DNA of 64,000 nucleotides. It comes from Clostridia bacterium. GTDB taxonomy: Bacteria > Bacillota > Clostridia > TANB77 > CAG-508. The DNA is taken from the NCBI GenBank assembly GCA_900753165.1, contig CAADYC010000089.1, positions 13,371-77,370 of the forward strand, read 5' to 3'. This document shows positions 3,200 to 52,900 of this stretch, piece after piece. Every line of letters starts with the position of its first letter. The stretch's first letter is position 1. Made by a program: the position numbers and the translations under genes. A model generated the notes under the pieces. That model saw nothing but the letters and a program-made list of their open reading frames with translations, had not been told where the DNA came from and searched no databases.

Positions 3200-4126
3200 T
3201 TGAAAAATATAGTAGGAATAAGATTTAAAAAACTAGGAAAAATATATTTTTTTAATCCAAAAGGAATAAAAGTTCAAAAGGAAGATAAAGTAATAGTAGA
3301 AACAGCTCAAGGGGAAGAATATGCAGAGGTATGGATTCCTAACAGAAATGTTGAAGATGAAAAGATAGTAGCACCATTAAAGAAAGTGTTAAGAATAGCT
3401 ACAAATAAAGATATAAAAAGACATGAAGAATGCAAAGAAATAGAAAAAGAAGCATTCAAAGTGTGTGAGAAAAAAATCAAAGAACATAAACTAAATATGA
3501 CTCTTACAGAAGTTGAATGTAAATTTGATAATAGTAAAATGTTATTTTATTTTATTGCTGATGGAAGAGTAGACTTTAGAGAATTAGTAAGGGATTTAGC
3601 AGCAATTTATAAAACAAGAATTGAGCTACGTCAAATTGGAGTTAGAGATGAAGTTAAAAGAATAGGTGGAAACGGTGTCTGTGGTAGAGAATTATGCTGT
3701 TGTACATTTTTAAATGATTTTGAAGCAGTATCAATAAAAATGGCAAAAGAACAAAACATATCATTAAATCCATCAAAAATTTCAGGAAATTGTGGAAGGC
3801 TTATGTGTTGTCTAAAATATGAAAATGAAGTATATGAAGATAAACTTAAACATCTTCCAAATGTTGGAGCTATTGTTAGAACAGAAGATGGTATTGGAGA
3901 AGTAGATAATATCGAAATTTTAAAGGAAAAATTAAGAATAAAGTTTAAAGGTGAAGATGGTTATACATATAAAAAATATGATGTTAAAGATGTAATAATA
4001 ATTAAAGATGTTGCTAGAGAACAAATCGATGAAGAAGAAATTCAAAATAAGAAAGAATTAGAAGAACTTGAAAAGCTAGAGCAAGAAGATAAAAAAGTTT
4101 TAGGAGGTGAGAAGAATGGCATATAA
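3200..4126 (+). CDS. ricT: PSP1 domain protein RicT/YaaT (TTG start)
   Basis: PSP1 C-terminal Cys-rich motifs (CGRELCCCTF, CGRLMCCLKYE). Position immediately after holB, as in Bacillus. Confidence 0.8.
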   Translation: MKNIVGIRFKKLGKIYFFNPKGIKVQKEDKVIVETAQGEEYAEVWIPNRNVEDEKIVAPLKKVLRIATNKDIKRHEECKEIEKEAFKVCEKKIKEHKLNMTLTEVECKFDNSKMLFYFIADGRVDFRELVRDLAAIYKTRIELRQIGVRDEVKRIGGNGVCGRELCCCTFLNDFEAVSIKMAKEQNISLNPSKISGNCGRLMCCLKYENEVYEDKLKHLPNVGAIVRTEDGIGEVDNIEILKEKLRIKFKGEDGYTYKKYDVKDVIIIKDVAREQIDEEEIQNKKELEELEKLEQEDKKVLGGEKNGI

Positions 4127-4370: not shown

Positions 4371-5713
4371 CCATTTTCAATATATATTTTATCAATAATT
4401 TTTAACCAAAAAGTTCTTTTTTCTTCATCTGAAAATAAGCAATAAATTTTATATATATCTAAATTCATAATTTCTTTTAACTTTGAAGAGTCCCTTTGCG
4501 GAGTAGATATGGCTTCATTTTTCAATTCATTCATCTTTTTGTTTAAGCTTTCATAATCAGATCTGTATGTTTTTTTATCGATTAAATCGTCCAAATATAA
4601 ATCCTTAAGTTTTAATATTTTGTTTTCTATTCGTTTTATTTCATTTGAGTTATCATTTTTGGTAGTTTGATTAGAAATGACAACATTTGCATTGATGTAA
4701 TTTTTAGCGATGCTTTTAATATTATCTAATAAGTATTTTTCAATATATTCTTCTCTAATTAATTTATGATTGTCGCATTTGTATTCCATACTGCCGACTT
4801 TTCTCCTTGAAGCATTATCACAACAATATCTAATTAATTTTTTTGTGCTTCTATTGTCTTGCTTTTTACACATTCTAGTATTGCAAATACCACAGAAAAT
4901 TAATCCAGAAAACAGAGAAATATTAGATGTTTTTATACTTGTTTTTTCTCTTTTTTTAAATAGATTTTGAACCGAGTAGAACAAAGCATTGTTCATTATA
5001 TGTGGAATATAGTTGTCTATATAAATATTTTTTCTATACAATTTATATTTACCAATATATGATGTGTCATGTAAATAGTGTATCATTGCATCGTAACCTT
5101 TATTTTCAAAGTGTTGGATAAAATATTTATAGGTTTCTTTAAGATTACCATTATTATTAATAAATTCATTGTATAAATTTAAAATATTTTCGGCTTCTTT
5201 TTTATTTATTACAAATTTTTTATCAACTATATCATATCCATATTTTTTGGTTCCAGATGTAACTTCTCCTTTTTCTCTTTTATTTTGAAAGACAAATTTA
5301 ATTCTTTCAGATGTTTTACCGATTTCTCTTTGAGCAAGCGATACTTTTAAATTGAATATGAAAGTGCCATCTGCGGTAGAGGTATCAATATCATCTTCAT
5401 CTATTGCTTTCATTGTACATTTATTATCGATTAATAATTTATTTATATTATTTGCATCTAATACATTTCTGGATAATCTGTCCAATTTAGTAAATAATAT
5501 TATATCAAATACATTGCATTTACTTAACATTTCATTTAGTGCTTTTCTTTTTTTCATGGAAGAAGCAGAAATTCCTTCATCTATATAAAATTCATATTTA
5601 TATCCATTTTCTTTACAGTATTTTTCTAATGCATCTTTTTGTGCTTGTATAGAAAAACCAAATTTTGCCTGTTCATCTGTGCTTACACGGCAATAACAAG
5701 CTACATATTTCAT
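4343..5713 (-). CDS. Large serine recombinase (phage integrase)
   Basis: N-terminal resolvase catalytic domain (YCRVSTDEQ with the Ser nucleophile). Large recombinase and zinc-ribbon C-terminal region (CGICNTRMC..CC). 456 aa. Confidence 0.9.
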   Translation of the reverse strand: MKYVACYCRVSTDEQAKFGFSIQAQKDALEKYCKENGYKYEFYIDEGISASSMKKRKALNEMLSKCNVFDIILFTKLDRLSRNVLDANNINKLLIDNKCTMKAIDEDDIDTSTADGTFIFNLKVSLAQREIGKTSERIKFVFQNKREKGEVTSGTKKYGYDIVDKKFVINKKEAENILNLYNEFINNNGNLKETYKYFIQHFENKGYDAMIHYLHDTSYIGKYKLYRKNIYIDNYIPHIMNNALFYSVQNLFKKREKTSIKTSNISLFSGLIFCGICNTRMCKKQDNRSTKKLIRYCCDNASRRKVGSMEYKCDNHKLIREEYIEKYLLDNIKSIAKNYINANVVISNQTTKNDNSNEIKRIENKILKLKDLYLDDLIDKKTYRSDYESLNKKMNELKNEAISTPQRDSSKLKEIMNLDIYKIYCLFSDEEKRTFWLKIIDKIYIENGKIKEITFS

Positions 5714-5866: not shown

Positions 5867-6528
5867 TTAAATTGATTTCTTTTTCTGGCTTCAACAACTT
5901 TACCAATAATTTTAACAGGTATTTTTTCCATATCTTCGCTAGAAAAATGTCTAACTGGATAATAAGGGTTCATAGCTATTAAATCTATTCCATCTTCCAT
6001 TCTAACGACCTTTTTTACAGTTGCTTCATCTCCGTTTATTAATACAATACAAGTATTACCACTTTCAAAGTCGTCTTGCTTATGTACTATTGCAATGTCT
6101 CCATTTGAAAATAACGGTTCCATACTGTCACCAGTTACTTGTAATGCATAATAGTTTTCTGGGTCAGAAGGAATATAATCTAAATATAATCGACCAATTT
6201 TATTCTCATCAGCTAAATAGTCATATCCAGCTTTAACTTTTCCTAAAATTGGAATTTGAAGTTGATTTAATTTAGATATAGGGGTAATGTTTAGTGAATT
6301 TAAATTTCTGTCCATAGGAACTTCATATCCCATTAACCAAATTTCATTTACATTTAAAGCATCAGCAAGTATAGTTAATTTGTCCTGCTTAGCATTCGCT
6401 TTACCAGATAAATATTTATTAATCAATGTTTTATCTAAGCCAGTTTTTTCGACTAAATTTACTTGTTTCATATTTTTAATAGTCATAGCTTTGTATAATC
6501 TATTTTGAAAAGTATCAATAGGCTTCAT
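5863..6528 (-). CDS. CI/LexA-like phage repressor (XRE HTH plus S24 peptidase)
   Basis: N-terminal HTH (QVNLVEKTGLDKTLINKYLSG). C-terminal S24 signature (GDSMEP..K). Transcribed divergently from cro. Confidence 0.85.
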   Translation of the reverse strand: MKPIDTFQNRLYKAMTIKNMKQVNLVEKTGLDKTLINKYLSGKANAKQDKLTILADALNVNEIWLMGYEVPMDRNLNSLNITPISKLNQLQIPILGKVKAGYDYLADENKIGRLYLDYIPSDPENYYALQVTGDSMEPLFSNGDIAIVHKQDDFESGNTCIVLINGDEATVKKVVRMEDGIDLIAMNPYYPVRHFSSEDMEKIPVKIIGKVVEARKRNQFK

Positions 6529-17764: not shown

Positions 17765-17840
17765 TGCATCTTAGTTCAAATGGTAGAACACAACACTTTG
17801 AATGTTGAAGTTTCAAGTTCGAGTCTTGAAGGTGCATCCA
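17765..17840 (+). tRNA. tRNA-Gln (anticodon UUG), CCA encoded
   Basis: Hand-folded 76 nt: acceptor TGCATCT/AGGTGCA, D-stem GTTC/GAAC, anticodon stem CAACA/TGTTG with loop CTTTGAA, T-arm TCAAG-TTCGAGT-CTTGA. Confidence 0.8.
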
Positions 17841-19471: not shown

Positions 19472-20035
19472 GTGAGTGAGGTGGCAAAGTATGACTGGAA
19501 GCAGTTAGAAAAAGAATACATATTAAGTAATTATAAATCAGTAAGTAGCTTCTTAAAAGATAAAGGAATATCTATAAATGGAAGTACTAAAAAAAGTACT
19601 AAAGGTTGGAAAAATAAAAAAGTACTAAAAGAGGAACAAAAAAGTACTAAAGTTATAGAAAAAGTAATAGAAAAAGAATCAGAAAAAGAAGCTAATAAAA
19701 TAATACAAGTAAAAGATATAGCAAATGATTTATTAAACAAAATAGTACAAGCAAACAACGAACTTAACATGCATATAGCAAGAAATAAAAAAAAGACCAA
19801 GACAGTAGAATATAATTACGATATGTGCAAACCAAGTAAAGAAACAATAAACGAAGAGGAAGAAATAAAATCGTATATAGATATTATAGATAGAAAAGGA
19901 CTAAAAGAACTTACATCTGCATTGAAAGACTTAAATGATATATTAGGACCAAAAGAAGATGATGATGAAAATGATAATTCATTTATAGAAGCCTTAAATG
20001 GAAAAACGGAGGACATTTGGAATGAAGAAGGGTAA
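19472..20035 (+). CDS. Terminase small subunit (GTG start)
   Basis: Position immediately 5' of terL with an ATGA-type overlap. Basic N-terminal DNA-binding-like region. Confidence 0.55.
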   Translation: MSEVAKYDWKQLEKEYILSNYKSVSSFLKDKGISINGSTKKSTKGWKNKKVLKEEQKSTKVIEKVIEKESEKEANKIIQVKDIANDLLNKIVQANNELNMHIARNKKKTKTVEYNYDMCKPSKETINEEEEIKSYIDIIDRKGLKELTSALKDLNDILGPKEDDDENDNSFIEALNGKTEDIWNEEG

Positions 20036-21320
20036 AGCAAATTTTAAATGGAAGCCAATGTCTAATAAACAATTAAAAGTCTTTACTTGGTGGAATGATA
20101 ATTCACCTATGAAAGACAAAGATGGAATAATAGCAGATGGAGCAGTAAGAAGTGGAAAAACTATAAGTATGGCACCAAGTTTTGTTATGTGGGCTATGGA
20201 AAAGTATGATGGATGTGATTTTGCTATATGTGGTAAAACAATAGGATCCTTAAATAGAAATGTTATAAATACATTAAAGAAACAATTGCATTCTTTAAAA
20301 TATAGATATGAACATAAAAGAAGTGAAAATTTATTAATAGTTAGTAAAAATGGAAAAACTAACTATTTTTATTTATTTGGAGGCAAAGATGAATCAAGTC
20401 AAGATTTAATTCAAGGTATGACATTAGCAGGAATATTCTTTGATGAAGTAGCTTTAATGCCACAATCATTTGTAGATCAGGGTATAGCAAGATTGAGCGT
20501 GGAAGGTGCAAAATTTTGGTTTAACTGTAATCCTAAAAATCCAAACCACTGGTTTAAATTGGAGTATGTAGATAAAATAGAAGAAAAAAATATATTATAT
20601 TTACATTTTACAATGGATGATAATTTGACGTTATCAGAAGCAGTAAAAGAAAGATATAGAAGAATGTTTATAGGAGTATTCTATAAAAGAAATATATTAG
20701 GATTATGGGTAACTGCTGAAGGATCTATTTATACAGTTTATAGTGATAATAAAGAAGTATATTATATAGATAAACCAGACTATGATTTTATACAAATAGG
20801 AATAGATTTTGGAGGAAATGGTTCTGCACATACATTTGTAGCAAGCGGATTAAAAAATAATTATTCTAAATTGACCGCACTAATGTCAGAAAGAATAGAA
20901 GCAACAGGAATGACTCCACAACAATTATATAGTGCAATAGATTTATTTATAGAAAAAGTGCAAAACAAATATGGACAAGTTAGTACAATATATCCTGACA
21001 GCGCAGAACAGACACTAATAAACGGAATAAAAACGATGGTATCTAATAAATATCCATATATAATTGTTAGAAATAGTATCAAAAATGAAATAATAGACAG
21101 AATTAGATGTACAACAAGTTTGATGGCAAGTTGTAGATTTTTTATGACACGAGATTGTAAAACATTAGAACTAGCATTTGAAAATGCTGTATATAATGAT
21201 AAGCCTAAAGAGCAAGGAAAAGATGAAAGACTAGATGATGGAACATCAGATATAGATACACTAGATGCATTTGAATATAGTTGGGAAAGATATTTAAGAC
21301 AATATAGTAGAGTAGCATAA
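19998..21320 (+). CDS. terL: Terminase large subunit
   Basis: Walker A GAVRSGKT, Walker B-like IFFDEV, and a C-terminal nuclease acidic cluster (DDGTSDIDTLDAFEYS). Confidence 0.9.
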   Translation: MEKRRTFGMKKGKANFKWKPMSNKQLKVFTWWNDNSPMKDKDGIIADGAVRSGKTISMAPSFVMWAMEKYDGCDFAICGKTIGSLNRNVINTLKKQLHSLKYRYEHKRSENLLIVSKNGKTNYFYLFGGKDESSQDLIQGMTLAGIFFDEVALMPQSFVDQGIARLSVEGAKFWFNCNPKNPNHWFKLEYVDKIEEKNILYLHFTMDDNLTLSEAVKERYRRMFIGVFYKRNILGLWVTAEGSIYTVYSDNKEVYYIDKPDYDFIQIGIDFGGNGSAHTFVASGLKNNYSKLTALMSERIEATGMTPQQLYSAIDLFIEKVQNKYGQVSTIYPDSAEQTLINGIKTMVSNKYPYIIVRNSIKNEIIDRIRCTTSLMASCRFFMTRDCKTLELAFENAVYNDKPKEQGKDERLDDGTSDIDTLDAFEYSWERYLRQYSRVA

Positions 21321-22734: not shown

Positions 22735-24312
22735 ATGATAGAAGATAAAATACAAAATTCAATAAAACCTATTTTAACCATATATAGTGATTTAGAAATC
22801 GAATTAATAAAGAAAATTGCAGAACATTTTAAGTTAAATGAAGAATTTATAAATTCAGACTATTGGTATTTTGAAAAATTAAAAGAAATGGGTGGACTTA
22901 ATAATGAAACAATAAAGTTATTAGAAAAGTACATCAATAAAACTAAAACAGAATTACTAGATGCCATGGGACAAATAGGAGTTGAATCAATACCTGTCGA
23001 ACAATTAAATATTGCAACACAAAAAAATGCATTATTAAATCCTGAAAAAATTATAAATAGTATAAATATACAAAATATAATAAAACATAGTTATAATGAA
23101 ACAGAAAAAAATTTTTTGAATTTGAATAAAACTATAGAAGAAAAGGTAAAGGAAACATATACAAATATTGTTACAGAAACATACATAAAGACTAATTCAG
23201 GAATATATAGTTACCAAGAAGCGATATTACAAAGTTTAGATAAACTTGGAGAAAAAGGAATATCAATACTTGAATATCAAGATAAAAATGGTTTGAAAAG
23301 AAATTATGACATTATAGGTACAGTTAGAAGAGATTTATTAGTTGCTACAAGAGGACTTGCTGGAAAGGTAAATGAAGAAGTAATAAAAGAAAGTGGAAAC
23401 CATATAGTAAGAGTTACTAATCATTTTGGAGCAAGAACAGGAGATGGAGGACAAGACTATACAAATCATGCTTGGTGGCAAGAAATACAATTTTTCTGTT
23501 GGAACTATGATGGGAAAGCAACAGAAGAAGAAAAAAAATTACCAGATTTTATGGAACACTGCAATTATGGAGATGTTCGAGGAATAGTAGGTATAAATTG
23601 TAAGCATTTATTTACAGTGTGGTATGGTCCATTGAAAAAAGATAAATTAGATTCTACATATAAAGAAAATGAAGAACAATACAAAAAAACACAACAACAA
23701 AGATATCTTGAAAATGGTGTGCGTAAATGGAAAAGAAAACAAGTTATTGCAAAGAAAATTATTGATGAAGAAAATTATAAGAAAGCTAGTTTAAAAGCAA
23801 AAGAATGGCAAGAGAGATTAAATGCATTTACAGAAGATAATGAACTAAAGAGAGAACATACAAGAGAACATGTAAAAGACTATAAAAATATGACAAAAAC
23901 TAAAAAAAGTGATATAATAGTTAAAGAAAAAAGAGCACAAAGAAATGCGTATGCTATATCACAAGAGCAGATTGATAATATATGCAATAATGAATTACAG
24001 AATATAAAATTTCAAAAGAAGCCAGAGTATAATCCAAGAATAGGAGATAATGGAAGAACAAAATATATTGAATATCCTTGGGGAGAATGTAAAGAAATAA
24101 CCAAAATAGAAATAGGAAAACAAGACAAGAACACAAAGGAGTTTTTAATAGACTCTTTATTGCATGAAAAACTAGAAGCTAAAATAGCAAGTACAAATAC
24201 AGATTATTATAATAAATTAAAAAATATAGGTGACTATGATAGACACACATATATAAATAAAATAATAAAAAGATATTTTGATATGAGGAGGTGGAATAAT
24301 GGAAATAGATGA
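22735..24312 (+). CDS. Head morphogenesis / minor capsid protein
   Basis: 525 aa following the portal. Confidence 0.5.
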   Translation: MIEDKIQNSIKPILTIYSDLEIELIKKIAEHFKLNEEFINSDYWYFEKLKEMGGLNNETIKLLEKYINKTKTELLDAMGQIGVESIPVEQLNIATQKNALLNPEKIINSINIQNIIKHSYNETEKNFLNLNKTIEEKVKETYTNIVTETYIKTNSGIYSYQEAILQSLDKLGEKGISILEYQDKNGLKRNYDIIGTVRRDLLVATRGLAGKVNEEVIKESGNHIVRVTNHFGARTGDGGQDYTNHAWWQEIQFFCWNYDGKATEEEKKLPDFMEHCNYGDVRGIVGINCKHLFTVWYGPLKKDKLDSTYKENEEQYKKTQQQRYLENGVRKWKRKQVIAKKIIDEENYKKASLKAKEWQERLNAFTEDNELKREHTREHVKDYKNMTKTKKSDIIVKEKRAQRNAYAISQEQIDNICNNELQNIKFQKKPEYNPRIGDNGRTKYIEYPWGECKEITKIEIGKQDKNTKEFLIDSLLHEKLEAKIASTNTDYYNKLKNIGDYDRHTYINKIIKRYFDMRRWNNGNR

Positions 24313-24529: not shown

Positions 24530-24659
24530 TGTTGAATTAACAAATGGAAGTATAGTAACAATTACTGATATACAAGGAAGTATAGGTGGAGAACAATGTT
24601 ATATAGCAGGTATATGCCCAATTCCAGAAGAAAGAATAATAAGAAAAATAGAAGATTAA
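24507..24659 (+). CDS. Hypothetical 50-aa protein
   Basis: GGAGAG RBS. Confidence 0.3.
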   Translation: MKYKIGDNVELTNGSIVTITDIQGSIGGEQCYIAGICPIPEERIIRKIED

Positions 24660-24667
24660 TATAAATA

Positions 24668-24805
24668 TTTGAGGTGGCGGAATAGGTAGACGCTAAGTGT
24701 GATAGAAATATCCGAATCGAATAAAATATAGGAGTAACCGTTATCAGAAGTGGCGTAGGAGTGTACACTGGCACTCTATGTTAGGTGCAAATCCTAATCC
24801 TCATT
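24668..24805 (+). ncRNA. Candidate structured tRNA-like RNA (tRNA-Leu-like D-arm and T-arm around an ~85-nt insert)
   Basis: TG-GCGGAATAGGTAGACGC is nearly identical to the bacterial tRNA-Leu D-arm. Also has a TTAGG-TGCAAAT-CCTAA T-arm-like hairpin, a 5-bp acceptor-like pairing TGAGG/CCTCA and a local GC-rich patch. No canonical anticodon arm found. Confidence 0.35.
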
Positions 24806-24828
24806 AAATAATTAAATAGTTAAATTAT

Positions 24829-24857
24829 AGAAGTTCAAAAATGGACTTCTATTTTTT
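24829..24857 (+). terminator. Rho-independent terminator after the tRNA-like element
   Basis: AGAAGTTC-aaaaat-GGACTTCT then ATTTTTT. Confidence 0.55.
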
Positions 24858-24954
24858 ATATTCAAATTCGACTATATGCAAGTCGTGAATAAGTGCATAA
24901 CTACATCGTGAACGAAAAACACGTAAAAGTTCGTAGTAGGAGAAAGGAAACATT

Positions 24955-25539
24955 ATGAAAAGAAAATTTTTAGAAGATTTAGGACTAGAGGCTGATGCAA
25001 TCGAAAAAATAATGATTGAATCAGGAAAAGACACAACAGCATTAAAAGCAAAAGTTGATGACTTAGCAGAACAAGTAAATGTTAAGGAAATTGCTATTTC
25101 AGAAAAAAACAACAAAATAGCTGAACTTGAAAAAGTAGACGTCGAAGCTATAAAAACTTCTGAATATGAAAGAGGAAAAGCAGAAGGTTCTAAAGAAGTA
25201 GAAACTTTCAAAAAGCAAAATGCTTTAGAAAAAGCTTTATCTAAATATAAAGCAAAAGACACTGGTATTTTAAGTAAAATGCTAGATATGGAAAAGGTTA
25301 AATATAATGACAAATTTGAAATCGTGGAAGGATTAGAGGACCAAGTAAACTCTATAAAAGAAAGCCACGATTATTTATTTGATAGTGATAAACCTTTACC
25401 ACATTTTACAGGAAGTATAACACAACCTGGAAATAATCAAATAACAAAAGAGGTATTCAACAAAATGGGATATCAAGAAAGAGTAAAACTATATAACGAA
25501 AATAAATCGTTGTATGACCAATTAAAAAATCAAGAATAA
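24955..25539 (+). CDS. Capsid scaffolding protein
   Basis: Alpha-helical, charged, 194 aa, immediately upstream of the major capsid gene. Confidence 0.65.
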   Translation: MKRKFLEDLGLEADAIEKIMIESGKDTTALKAKVDDLAEQVNVKEIAISEKNNKIAELEKVDVEAIKTSEYERGKAEGSKEVETFKKQNALEKALSKYKAKDTGILSKMLDMEKVKYNDKFEIVEGLEDQVNSIKESHDYLFDSDKPLPHFTGSITQPGNNQITKEVFNKMGYQERVKLYNENKSLYDQLKNQE

Positions 25540-41889: not shown

Positions 41890-41933
41890 CACATAATTAA
41901 CATAATATGTTATAATACAGATGAGGTGATGAT

Positions 41934-42113
41934 ATGAACGAAGCATATAACAAATCACTACAAATGATAAAATATTTAAAAATAAGATTAACAAGAAAGC
42001 AATATACAGAATTAGCAAAGAGATTCAATTTATTAAGTATACAGAGTTTACAATTTATATCAAAAAGAAGTTATGAAAGTATACTTACAGAAATACTGAA
42101 AGAAGTTGCATAA
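41934..42113 (+). CDS. Hypothetical 59-aa protein downstream of the DnaA/0A box cluster
   Basis: GAGGTGA RBS, ATG 41934, and a terminator at 42116-42144. Confidence 0.35.
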   Translation: MNEAYNKSLQMIKYLKIRLTRKQYTELAKRFNLLSIQSLQFISKRSYESILTEILKEVA

Positions 42114-46207: not shown

Positions 46208-46518
46208 TATTCAGCACCTTCTTCCTTCATAACAATTGCACCAAATGGGCACGCTTTAGCACAAACGCCACATCCTTTACAATAATCATAATTAAAATCT
46301 TCTCTTTTTAAAGAACCTTTGCAAACAGGAATACTATTATCTGGACAAACAGGGTAGCATAATCCACATTGTTTACATTTTTCTTCTATCCATACAGGTT
46401 TAAGACTTCTCCAGTCACCAGTTTTGAATTCTCTGGCATTACCTGCTTCATATATATTTCCACCTATTGTTAAATCTTCCATAGGTGTTGTTTTATCTAT
46501 ATTTGACATCTTTTTCAC
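46207..46518 (-). CDS. porD: 2-oxoacid:ferredoxin oxidoreductase delta subunit (2x[4Fe-4S])
   Basis: CKQCGLCYPVCP and CKGCGVCAKACP motifs. Confidence 0.8.
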   Translation of the reverse strand: MKKMSNIDKTTPMEDLTIGGNIYEAGNAREFKTGDWRSLKPVWIEEKCKQCGLCYPVCPDNSIPVCKGSLKREDFNYDYCKGCGVCAKACPFGAIVMKEEGAE

Positions 46519-46532
46519 CTTTCCTTGTAAAA

Positions 46533-46614
46533 AATCGGGATTAGGGGACGGGGCTTTAATCCCGATTTTTTAAAAACTTTTTTCGGGATTGAAGACCCGT
46601 CCCCTAATCCCGTT
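46533..46614. repeat. Two tandem REP-like elements in opposite orientations
   Basis: ATCGGGATTAGGGGACGGGGCTTTAATCCCGAT and TCGGGATTGAAGACCCGTCCCCTAATCCCG. Confidence 0.7.
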
Positions 46615-47191
46615 AAATTTTCTTAACTTCTTTTAAAGCCATTTCTAAGGCTTTCATGTTTCCATCAATAACTTCTGGTTTTTTAGCAAATTTATGTTTA
46701 AAAGAACCTTTCATATCTTCTAAGAAAGCTTCGTCAGACATAATTCCGCTAACTTTAACAATTGCAGCAAGCATAGGTGTATTTGGAAAATATCTTCCTA
46801 ATGCTTCAATTGATATTTTTCTTGCATCTATTGTGTAAACATAACCTTTGTAACCATTTAATACACTTCTTAAATAGTCTGCAGATTTTGTTGTATTAAT
46901 TACAATTGCACCTGTTTCTTTTAGACCTGCTGTTACTGGAACAGTTTCTAATAATGTGTCATCAACAACAACAACATAGTCTGGTTCATAGATGTTGCTG
47001 TGAACTGTAATGGGTTTGTCACTAATTCTGTTATAAGCAGTAATCGGTGCTCCCATTCTTTCTGGTCCATATTCAGGGAAACCTTGAATGTATTTTCCAG
47101 TATTAAATGCGGCGTCAGCTAATAGTAATGATGCTGTTTTTGCACCTTGACCACCTCTACCGTGCCATCTAATTTCTATTAGGTTATTCAT
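46613..47191 (-). CDS. porC: 2-oxoacid:ferredoxin oxidoreductase gamma subunit
   Basis: IRWHGRGGQG motif. Start ATG with an AAGGAGG RBS. Confidence 0.8.
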   Translation of the reverse strand: MNNLIEIRWHGRGGQGAKTASLLLADAAFNTGKYIQGFPEYGPERMGAPITAYNRISDKPITVHSNIYEPDYVVVVDDTLLETVPVTAGLKETGAIVINTTKSADYLRSVLNGYKGYVYTIDARKISIEALGRYFPNTPMLAAIVKVSGIMSDEAFLEDMKGSFKHKFAKKPEVIDGNMKALEMALKEVKKI

Positions 47192-49926: not shown

Positions 49927-52900
49927 ATGTATTTAAAAAGATTAGAATTACAAGGATTTAAATCCTTTGCAGATAAAACAGTATTGGAACTAATGCCTGG
50001 AATAACAACAGTAATAGGGCCAAACGGTTCAGGAAAAAGTAACATATCAGACGCAATAAGATGGGTACTTGGAGAACAAAGTATGAAATCATTAAGAGGT
50101 ACAAAATCTCTAGACATAATATTTGCAGGTACTCAAAATAGAAAGTCTTTAGGCTTTGCCGAGGCTTCTTTGGTATTTGATAATTCTGATGGTGCATTGC
50201 CAATTGAATATACGGAAGTAACAGTTACAAGAAAAATTTATAGAAGTGGTGAGACTGGTTATTATATAAACAAAGTTCCATGCAGATTAAAAGATGTATT
50301 GGAATTGTTTATGGATACTGGTATTGGTAAAGATGGATATTCAATTATTGGACAAGGTAAAATCGATGAGATTTTGAGTAACAAGTCTGAAGATAGAAGA
50401 CATATTTTTGAAGAGGCTGCAGGTATTGTTAAATATAGGACAAGAAAGCAAGAGTCTGAAAAAAAGTTGGAACATACAAAGTTAAATCTTTTAAGAATTA
50501 ATGATATTTTGTCTGAAATTGAAGGAAATCTAGAGCCTTTACAAATGCAAGCAGACAAGGCTAAAAAGTATTTAAATTTAAGAGAAGAGTTGAAGAATAT
50601 TGAAATTGGTCTATTTGTTTACAACATAGAAAAATATAAACAAGACTTAGAAAAAGTTGTACAAGACATTGAAATTATGCAATCTCAATGCAATGATGAA
50701 GAAGGCAGATTAGAAAGAGTAAAAATCTTAAAAGAAGAGTTAAAATCTAGCATTGATGAAATTACAGAAACAATTGAAAATATGTCAAATATAGGTTTTG
50801 AGAGTCAAAAACAAATTGAACAATTGAATTCTGATATAAATGTTGCAAAGACTAGAATTGCAAATAATAATGAAAATAATGATAGATATTTAAAAGAAAT
50901 TGAAGAACAAAATGCTAAAGTTCAAGAGTTAAAAGATGAAATTGAACAAAAAGAGGCTAAAAAAGATAACTTAAAACAAAACAAAGAAAAATTTGAAAAA
51001 GAGTTAAATGAAAAGCAAGCAGAGTTAGATAAATTAACAGAAAAATTGTCTTCAAAAGAGTTAGAAATTGAAGGATACAAACATACGGTAGAAGAAAATA
51101 CAGATAAAAAATATGAACTTCAATCAGAAATAAATGCTCAAAACATAAATTATCAAAACTTTGAAAAAAGACAAGCACAAATAAAACAAGAAATGCAGTC
51201 AACAATTTCTGAATTAGATGGAACTCGTCTTAATAAAGAAGATATTGCAAAGCAATTTAATGAAATTGAAAACAAAAAAAATAAGGCTCAAAATTCATTA
51301 AATGAAGTAGCAAAACAAAGAGAAGAAGCAAACCAAAAAATTAAATCATTTGAAAGTAATATAAATATTTTATCAAGTGAAATGAGAATAAAAGAATCAA
51401 GACTAAAATTTTTGATAGAAACAGAAAAAGAAAAAGAAGGATATATCAAAAGTGTTAAATCATTGCTTAAAGATTGTGAAAATATCAAAGAACTTGGCAA
51501 AGGTATGAATGGCGTTTTGGCAAATATTATTGAAGTTCCAGATGATTTACAAACTGCAATTGAAATGTGCTTAGGAGCAAGTATTCAAAACATTGTAACA
51601 GAAACAGAAACAGATGCAAAAAGGTTAGTTGAACATTTAAGAAAAAATAATTTAGGAAGAGCATCTTTTTTACCAATTTCATCTGTTAGAGGTAAAAAAT
51701 TGGACAAGATAAAAGGCAATGAAAGTGGAGTTATTGGGATTGCGTCAGACCTTATAAAATACAACAAAAAATATGAGCAAATTATTTTAAATTTACTAGG
51801 TAGAACTGTAATTGTTGACAACATGGATACTGCAATTAAAGTTGCAAAACAAAATGGATATACATTCAGAATTGTAACAACTGAAGGTGACTTAATAAAT
51901 CCATCTGGTGCAATTACTGGTGGTTCAGTTGCTAAAAAGACTGTTAACATTTTGGGTAGAGGCAAAGAAATTGAAAAACTTGAAAAAGAGATAAAAAATC
52001 TAAAACAAAAAATTGAAAAACTAGAAAATGACAAGCAAAATTACGAAGAATCAATTGAAGGAATTTTAGAGTTATCTGCAAATTTTGAAAAAGAACTACA
52101 AGAAATTGACATCACATACGCAACTGAAAAACAAAAAGTTATTTCAATAAATGAAAATATTGAAAAACTTGAAAAGCGTTTGAATAGACTAAAAGAAGAA
52201 CAAGCAAATCTTGAAAAACAAAAAGAAGAAGCGGTTTCAACAAAAGGTGATTTACAAGTTGAAATAAATAAAATTGTTGAGCAAAATGAAGAACTTTCTA
52301 AAATAATTACTGAATTTGCAGAATTGAACAAAGATGATCAAAAATATATTGATGACCTGAATTTTGATATTACAAACTTGAAAATTTCTGTATCTTCATT
52401 TGACGAAAGTGAAGCATCAATTCAAGAAATTCAAGAAAGAATTAATCAAGAATTAGAAAATGCACATACAAGTATTGAAAATAAAAATGCACAAATTGAG
52501 CAAATCAAAAAAGACAATGAAGACTTAGAAAAATCAATACAGGATACACTTCAAAAAATAGAAAAAGTTAAAGAAAGTGTAAATAGCAGTAGTTCAAAAA
52601 TTGAAGAATTGAAAAAAGAAAGAGCTCAAAAGAGTGAAAAACTTTCAAAACAAGAAGATGAGATAACTGCTAAATTTAAAGTAATTGAAGACTTAAAAGG
52701 TCAAATTGTAAAATTAGATGTTAAAAAGACAAAAATTGAAGAAGATATTAATGGCATTATCAACAAAATGTGGGAAGAATATGAACTTACACCTAATAAT
52801 GCAGAACAATATAAAAAACCAGAAAATGTTGCGTTAACACAAAGAAGAGTCAATAATTTGAGAACTGAAATTAGAGAACTTGGAAGTGTTAATGTAGATT

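Follow-up and report, generated by a model that had tools for sequence, protein, structure and literature searches.

A candidate non-decoding tRNA-Leu-like RNA with an exchangeable insert in phages and prophages of Bacillota

The locus and its tRNA-like element

The window analysed here is a stretch of 64,000 nucleotides (nt) from a Clostridia bacterium (GTDB lineage Bacteria; Bacillota; Clostridia; TANB77; CAG-508; NCBI GenBank assembly GCA_900753165.1, contig CAADYC010000089.1, positions 13,371 to 77,370 of the forward strand). It carries phage head genes in the order portal, minor head protein, two small open reading frames (ORFs), head scaffolding and major head protein. Between the small ORFs and the scaffolding gene lies a gap of 295 base pairs (bp), 24660 to 24954, without an ORF on the + strand, and in it an element that combines an acceptor-like stem (P1), a D arm exactly as in tRNA-Leu, a T arm and, where the anticodon and variable arms would stand, an insert; an intrinsic terminator follows it (Table 1). 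We find that this element is, judging from its sequence, a real and selected RNA, and that it belongs to a family that resides mainly in phages and prophages of Bacillota.

The element had been proposed from the letters of the window alone as a discrete, structured, non-coding RNA resembling tRNA-Leu, a prediction that fold, covariation and covariance-model score now back. Its parts are all present: the acceptor-like pairing of TGAGG with CCTCA, the D arm, then called near-exact, and the T-arm-like hairpin TTAGG/CCTAA, to which we add a sixth pair that is G.U in the window copy. The insert, put at about 85 nt, measures 84, and 90 nt separate CGC of the D arm from GGTGC of the T arm. The locally GC-rich block was likewise read correctly, the GC fraction being 0.41 across 24670-24809 and 0.21-0.32 in adjoining segments, and the terminator does follow the element. 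The gap has the size first given, and only the gene before it was misnamed: the minor head gene ends at 24312 and, since two small ORFs intervene, the gap opens after an ORF of 50-56 amino acids. The + strand folds at -50.1 kcal/mol (z = -3.5; 0 of 200 shuffles equal or better), against z = -1.7 for the - strand. The covariance model R1, built from 68 relatives, has its sole match in the window at the element.

Table 1. Positions of the element, its parts and its terminator in the window, and loci of the Listeria chromosomal copies
Feature	Position	Strand	Remarks
Whole tRNA-like element	24664..24810	+	covariance model R1, model positions 1-148, 87.7 bits, E = 3.6e-24
P1 5' strand (acceptor-like stem), TGAGG	24670..24674	+	pairs with CCTCA 24799-24803
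U8 and G9 equivalents (U 24675, G 24676)	24675..24676	+	U8 is T in 100% of 158 sequences; G9 is set by the search pattern
tRNA-Leu-type D arm, GCG-GAATAGGTAGA-CGC	24677..24693	+	identical in all pattern matches
Variable insert (payload) replacing anticodon and variable arms	24694..24777	+	84 nt in the window copy
Predicted P3 hairpin domain, TGATAG 24700-24705 with GTTATCA 24740-24746	24700..24746	+	minimum-free-energy fold
P4 hairpin, GGAGTG-TACACTGG-CACTCT	24758..24777	+	compensatory changes in the payload class
AU junction before the T stem (U48 equivalent)	24778..24779	+	A 86%, T 99% conserved
T arm, 6-bp stem GTTAGG/CCTAAT, loop UGCAAAU	24780..24798	+	stem covaries in the family
P1 3' strand, CCTCA	24799..24803	+	partner of 24670-24674
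Intrinsic terminator, 11-pair stem, 4-nt loop, T tract	24827..24860	+	stem-loop 24827-24852, then TTTTTTATATT
Listeria chromosomal copies	L127 4540-4720 (Listeria cornellensis); L133, L143, L149, L156, L159, L167, L175, L188

The outer stem of the window copy is weak, with 5 contiguous pairs followed by two U.U mismatches against 7-8 pairs in the family. Compared with its closest relatives, L038 and L150, it shows two helix-weakening substitutions (24798; 24799-24810). One, from C to T, turns the sixth pair of the T stem into G.U, and the other, from A to T, breaks the sixth pair of P1, which is why P1 has only 5 bp here and 6-9 bp in the relatives.

A conserved tRNA-Leu-like frame

The two arm motifs, GGCGGAATAGGTAGACGC and GGTGCAAATCC, spaced 75-105 nt apart, were used as a search pattern. 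At least 120 viral contigs of IMG/VR carry it, as do the genomes of 69 bacterial species, nearly all of them Bacillota, with a few metagenome-assembled genomes of Saccharibacteria and Gammaproteobacteria. Viral and bacterial matches pooled give 158 distinct sequences, and such recurrence of a 29-base pattern would be beyond chance expectation in collections this large. Among GenBank phages, a 30-nt probe matches unannotated stretches in several that are in culture: Bacillus phi3T and its relatives, Listeria B025, Enterococcus EFDG1-like phages, and phages of Weissella, Brochothrix, Leuconostoc and Lactobacillus. R1 gives Weissella WC29P3 84.2 bits, Bacillus phi3T 81.4, Enterococcus EFDG1 65.2 and Listeria B025 61.8, and real tRNA-Leu genes 22-29 bits. 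The copies are located at about 50190-50330 (minus strand) in phi3T (KY030782), about 46490-46700 (minus strand) in EFDG1 (KP339049) and about 41900-42100 in B025. The phage of the window is also present in ENA metagenome assemblies.

A blastn search with 481 nt against 50,697 phage records finds no match, because conservation is confined to the short arms. The Infernal/Rfam scan proposed at the outset matches no family to the element: Rfam 15 at the gathering threshold, run over the whole window, leaves it unmatched, and with E values up to 10 allowed, the scan of 24560-24960 yields nothing but chance-level hits on the terminator, RF00005 not being among them. The GenBank records checked have no annotation at the element, and literature searches, including one with the motif as a sequence string, return no description, an absence that is not proof of novelty. 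As far as we could determine, the frame with its exchangeable insert is an undescribed variant of tRNA mimicry, which is itself known.

Base pairs were counted in an alignment of 68 diverse members, with 500 shuffles and slid partners as controls. P1 and the T stem together reach a covariation score of 0.597, against 0.166 +/- 0.011 in the shuffles, none of which (0/500) attains the observed value, and at most 0.18 with slid partners; the covariation analysis called for in the original prediction thus turns out strongly positive. The inner 7 pairs of P1 are formed in 84-100% of these sequences, with all four Watson-Crick types seen, the eighth in 66% and the ninth in 47%, so that the family has the 7-bp acceptor stem of a canonical tRNA, which the window copy with its 5 contiguous pairs does not. 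The 6 pairs of the T stem are 98.5% paired, and 4 of the 6 vary on both sides. The G.U pairs lie on the + strand, and therefore the RNA would be made from that strand.

The nucleotides that form the elbow and core of a tRNA, U8, A14, A15 with U48, G18G19, U54 with A58, and C56, are retained; the D arm, with U8, A14 and G18G19 as in canonical tRNA, is nearly the same in real phage tRNA-Leu genes (GGAATAGGCAGAC / GGAATAGGTAGAC). The D stem covaries in variants found by the model only (GUG/CAC, UCG/CGA), with the D loop unchanged. The AU junction fits the A15-U48 pair of tRNA-Leu (PMC9976931), should that pairing form. In most copies the T loop has G where tRNAs have U55. We dropped G55 as a strict mark of the family: UUC variants of otherwise near-identical elements exist. 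A few variants have the ordinary 7/5 frame (7-bp acceptor, 5-bp T stem). The window copy shows the complete order of family parts, P1, U, Leu-type D arm, insert, (c)AU, 6-bp T stem with UGCAAAU, and P1'.

The original prediction had also offered a degenerate tRNA gene, and conservation and compensatory change over 158 distinct sequences contradict that. The short P1 and the U.U mismatches of the window copy would suit a decaying tRNA-Leu pseudogene or a chance resemblance, yet we give either a practically negligible chance, given that R1 recovers the copy with E = 3.6e-24, that its 158 distinct relatives covary, and that a copy in Listeria is conserved across nine species.

What the family does not have is an anticodon arm: past the D arm, the 158 sequences show neither a conserved sequence nor a conserved pairing. 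The 5-bp T stem and UUCRANY loop of canonical tRNA are likewise absent, their place being taken by 6 covarying pairs and UGCAAAU, with UUC in a minority. The position after P1 is A in 46% of the sequences, and U or C in the conserved Listeria copy. CCA is not encoded, although the tRNAs of the same arrays encode it (19/19 in L040, 9/9 in L081, 9/10 in L019). ARAGORN in tRNA, intron and transfer-messenger RNA (tmRNA) modes makes no call on the 158 elements, and at normal thresholds it reports only tRNA-Gln(UUG) in the window. That gene (17765-17840, 64.2 bits; Rfam 15 span 17765-17837), the sole canonical tRNA of the window, is followed downstream by two ORFs at 19472-21320. The distance to the first is about 1.7 kb, and the second, 19998-21320, matches the terminase large subunit.

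Could splicing of an intron or insertion nevertheless restore a decoding tRNA-Leu from these parts? The D arm is that of tRNA-Leu, real tRNA-Leu genes do score, if weakly, with R1, and ARAGORN at 80% stringency forces a 'tRNA-Ser with a 48-nt intron' on the window copy. We rejected this last model, which misuses the D stem as an anticodon stem. Intron mode at normal thresholds gives 0/158, the family shows no conserved anticodon stem beyond the D arm, and neither G55 nor a T stem of 6 bp is typical of a tRNA. A group I intron needs a catalytic core of roughly 200 nt or more, for which inserts of 45-170 nt, mutually unrelated, are too short, and no Rfam intron family is matched. A split tRNA-Leu gene is thus scarcely credible. 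A tmRNA was not found either: there is no Rfam match to one and no + strand ORF in the gap, and the tmRNA mode is silent on all 158.

A further reading takes the element for an aminoacylated tRNA mimic, charged by leucyl-tRNA synthetase (LeuRS) and active either in the manner of a tmRNA or as a donor of leucyl groups away from the ribosome. E. coli LeuRS leaves the anticodon and variable arm unread and needs A73, A15-U48, G18G19, A20a and D/T-loop contacts, and a truncated tRNA-Leu without both arms is still charged (PMC9976931). Since the enzyme ignores these arms, it could charge the element RNA, which retains its hinge elements (A15-U48, G18G19, A20a and the D/T-loop contacts); L212 and L224 even encode a 7-bp stem followed by A and CCA. 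In the same vein, the non-proteogenic tRNA-Gly of staphylococci, which serves the cell wall, has TGC or TGT for TTC, hence no pseudouridine 55, and avoids EF-Tu and the ribosome, which bind it poorly (PMC7826273). The element resembles it in the UGC T loop alone, for the staphylococcal tRNA is complete, chargeable and equipped with an anticodon arm. Against charging stand the discriminator, with A in fewer than half of the sequences where A73 is required for leucylation, and G55, which abolishes the G18:U55 contact listed as important (PMC9976931). That CCA is not encoded, even in arrays of CCA-encoding tRNAs, speaks against it too, and the gap holds no + strand ORF and ARAGORN no tmRNA call that would favour a tmRNA-like device. 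We regard the mimic as quite unlikely. General charging is improbable because a conserved A73 and an encoded CCA are missing, and LeuRS binding or charging of a subset is conceivable since all that LeuRS needs except A73 and U55 is kept.

Exchangeable inserts and genomic settings

The original prediction did not foresee a large family, nor that the insert is an exchangeable module. Inserts are 75-105 nt long within the search pattern and about 45-170 nt among R1 matches, and 136 of the 158 share few 9-mers with each other. Between the window and L064 the insert is 92% identical, P1 38%, and the flanks are at background level. The reverse holds for L010 and L012, where the flanks are 95% and P1 100% identical and the inserts 51%; the pairs L014/L060 and L057/L109 repeat this pattern of common flanks and differing inserts. 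Because the similarities of insert and flanks are decoupled, inserts move between otherwise unrelated contexts, an exchange that would proceed by recombination in the conserved arms.

The payload class of the window is found also in L038, L064, L122, L150 and L148, and within it the insert is under selection: P4 covaries, with GGAGTA/TACTCT in L122 and L150, GATGGG/CCTATC in L148 and a G.U pair in L064, and its loop UACRCUGG is conserved. P3 is predicted only; it is kept in 5 of 6 members, among which no compensatory change is seen. Within the insert, UGGCGU (24750-24755) can pair with ACGCUA (24690-24695), that is, with the 3' strand of the D stem and two further bases. The minimum-free-energy fold uses this pairing, which competes with the D arm and is kept with wobbles in L148; it may be an alternative conformer or a coincidence. 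Across the family, the only enriched insert motifs are a CAUG junction and, in about 12% of inserts, additional GGUUCGA hairpins. A general pseudoknot pairing of the insert with the linker that follows the D arm does no better than shuffles, the mean helix being 4.9 against 4.6, with 6% of sequences at p <= 0.05. Some inserts contain a nested tRNA-like unit (L200/L204, L209, L046 at 5314-5571, L152 at 5556-5664), whose own D arm is TAGCTCAGCCAGGTAGAGCA and whose T arm is of the UUC type. L152 also has this unit standing alone, with an Rfam tRNA call of 33.3 bits.

An insert that is swapped exactly between conserved arms might also point to a DNA-level element, whose arms, descended from a tRNA-Leu gene, would serve recombination or attachment while the RNA fold would be incidental, the more so as tRNA genes are common integration targets. 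We hold this to be very improbable: P1 and the T stem change in compensation on both sides, with G.U pairs that are valid on one strand only, the element has a strong strand bias relative to genes and tRNAs, and in Listeria it has a promoter and a terminator of its own.

The surroundings vary. Of the nearest ORFs, 78 of 93 on the upstream side and 71 of 97 on the downstream side run in the direction of the element. Temperate phages most often have, upstream of it, a gene for a late activator of the ArpU family (TIGR01637, 62.9 bits) or for a sigma-70 region 4 protein, and HNH or scaffold genes lie downstream. In eight loci a same-strand tRNA stands 10-21 nt from the element, the spacing of a tRNA gene in an array, and in L040 the stem begins directly after the CCA of tRNA-Gln. 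A terminator-like site follows the element in 30 of 153 loci (25 start 2-22 nt past P1), against 6 of 153 in the upstream control, so that the terminator noted in the window recurs in the family. ROOL RNA adjoins the element in 3 of 37 scanned loci, and some phages carry 2-4 copies with differing inserts. The placement in a head module, which the original prediction had made part of its description, is therefore not specific: the same RNA occurs in tRNA arrays, after ArpU-type late activators, beside ROOL RNA and in Listeria chromosomes.

Other RNAs occur near the element. ROOL RNA lies at 667-1248 in L015, 22 nt upstream of the element, at 599-1208 in L040, and at 4888-5480 in L023, where one tRNA stands between; the L023 island also has a skipping-rope RNA and that of L040 a phage tmRNA. 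The 5' part of the Listeria small RNA rliG is matched (73.1 bits) directly upstream of the element in L027, at 3553-3738, and a similar sequence lies upstream in L191 (phage B025), at about 2255-2310. We rejected rliG as the identity of the element: the L027 match spans upstream sequence and only the element's start. A match to mcrA RNA follows about 130 nt downstream of the element in L027. In L182 (Bacillus rugosus, phi3T-like prophage) the SR6 antitoxin RNA (103-206, 127.7 bits) lies in the same prophage stretch.

Nine species of Listeria sensu lato have a copy outside phages (Table 1), in the order azlC-azlD, promoter, element, terminator and DUF1361, the last on the opposite strand. The copy lies directly downstream of azlC-azlD in most of the nine. 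A conserved promoter of sigma-A type, TTGCAT-17-TGnTAYnAT, precedes it, and the stem of the terminator behind it covaries. The RNA is almost unchanged across the nine species, with flanking proteins 64-98% identical. By these comparisons, the Listeria copy is a stand-alone small-RNA gene, predicted from sequence, under purifying selection. azlC-azlD function in branched-chain amino acid transport, and we note the juxtaposition of a leucine-tRNA mimic with leucine transport genes.

These settings bear on the reading that the element acts purely in cis, as tRNA-like punctuation or a 3'-end element of polycistronic phage transcripts, and has no function in trans. A cut by RNase P or RNase Z, or a block to exonucleases, would then give upstream and downstream messages differing stability, in the way that tRNA-like structures process mitochondrial transcripts and MALAT1/mascRNA. 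The position between late-operon cistrons (minor head and scaffold here; ArpU-type activator and HNH or terminase elsewhere), the common orientation with neighbours and the terminator that often follows directly are all in its favour. The stand-alone promoter-to-terminator unit of Listeria, however, counts against a purely cis-acting role, and inside tRNA arrays or beside ROOL RNA there is no mRNA to punctuate. Nor would punctuation require inserts that are conserved within classes and covary, or several copies with differing inserts in one phage. A purely cis-acting role is, in our view, unlikely.

Possible roles of core and insert

We favour a reading in which the element is a gene for a non-decoding small RNA derived from tRNA-Leu, with the core as a processing and stability handle and the insert as effector, and give it a rough probability of 0.55. 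The tRNA-like core would serve maturation and stability, and perhaps be the site of a common partner. The cuts expected are one by RNase P at the 5' end of P1 and one by RNase Z after P1, the latter because CCA is not encoded. Processing would free a stable RNA, about 140 nt long, whatever the transcript, be it a late operon, a tRNA array or the element's own promoter-to-terminator unit, and the insert would bind a putative partner. In the window, the RNA would come from the end of the portal and minor-head transcript, which would stop at the element's own terminator. The tRNA-like processing or decoy element of the original prediction is a conceivable role as well.

Several observations weigh against this reading. 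We infer cleavage by RNase P and RNase Z solely from the tRNA-like frame and the spacing in arrays, and P1 stacked on the T stem gives 13 bp, against 12 bp in ordinary tRNAs. The D and T loops are so highly conserved in sequence that a specific partner, besides the generic processing enzymes, suggests itself. No partner of the insert was found, and beyond the T-arm-like hairpins in about 12% the inserts have no common motif; the longest complementarity of the window's insert to the rest of the window, 10-12 nt, is within the range of shuffles and reveals no antisense target. The window copy itself, with its 5-bp P1 and the G.U pair in its T stem, could be less active than its relatives.

A bolder form of the handle-and-effector reading sees a natural 'tRNA scaffold' system of phages and some bacteria, with the invariant tRNA-Leu core as a universal handle, interchangeable effectors and several RNAs in each phage genome. 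RNase P and RNase Z would recognise the core, as might LeuRS or a different factor that binds the elbow; the RNAs might act as decoys or sponges for host factors such as immune enzymes that attack tRNA, and the subset with A plus CCA might be leucyl carriers outside the ribosome. We consider this form possible but doubtful.

The element shares features with several known systems and coincides with none of them. Like class II tRNA-Leu of bacteria and phages, it has the D arm GGAAUAGGUAGAC with U8, A14, A15, G18G19 and A20a and, in the family, is closed by a stem of 7 bp; it also shares U48 ahead of the T stem, U54...A58 in the T loop, and placement in tRNA arrays. It differs in the missing anticodon arm, the insert of 45-170 nt, the 6-bp T stem and mostly UGCAAAU loop, and the lack of a conserved A73 or encoded CCA, and it is missed by ARAGORN and the Rfam tRNA model. 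In tmRNA the two ends form an acceptor stem with a D-loop side 5' and a T arm 3', and a large foreign domain stands in place of the anticodon arm. The element has the same overall layout, but at about 140 nt against about 360 nt, with a Leu-type and not an Ala-type frame; it has no tag reading frame, CCA, or Rfam or ARAGORN tmRNA match, and the pseudoknot set was not seen.

tRNA-shaped folds are also known to recruit RNase P and RNase Z for excision from longer transcripts, as in mitochondrial punctuation and MALAT1/mascRNA. Bacterial Y RNAs of the YrlA type are tied to Ro60 and have a Ro-binding stem; the strand topology of the element is different, and it has no Rfam match. YrlA is reported to be a non-coding RNA with a tRNA-like module, present in bacteria and some phages (PMC4201824), and to that extent the element is like it. 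An inserted aptamer can be borne by engineered tRNAs (PMC5397188). The tRNA-like processing signals and engineered scaffolds are eukaryotic, organellar or man-made, whereas the element would be part of a natural, modular and phage-borne system with putative cleavage. RNAC and RNAD of phage T4 are small RNAs from a phage tRNA region with no known role (PMC3014915); they come from a Gram-negative phage and are likened to the element by setting, not by sequence or structure.

If the preferred reading of handle and effector is true, a common class of phage RNA genes is unannotated in well-studied phages, among them phi3T, B025, EFDG1 and several Lactobacillus, Leuconostoc and Weissella phages, and the engineered tRNA scaffold would have its counterpart in nature, a fixed frame with many structured inserts swapped between genomes. 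The class would supply a concrete candidate for the role of some non-tRNA genes in phage tRNA islands, with easy test systems in B. subtilis, Listeria and Enterococcus, and would bear on tRNA mimicry, on tRNA-targeting immunity and on the choice of an anticodon-independent, LeuRS-type frame.

Two further genes depart from the ordinary tRNA. In L142, 15 nt upstream of the element at 6188-6315, another tRNA-like RNA (6330-6447, - strand) has an insert of about 65 nt for the anticodon arm. Its D arm is not of the Leu type (GCTCAATAGGGAGAGC), its T loop is a normal UUCGAUU, and it suggests a wider occurrence of insert-bearing tRNAs in these phages. In a Levilactobacillus tRNA array (L129, 6027-6084), a tRNA-like gene of 58 nt without an anticodon arm has an acceptor stem of 7 bp and a D arm that a linker of 9 nt joins to the T arm, and scores 49.6 bits with the Rfam tRNA model over these 58 nt.

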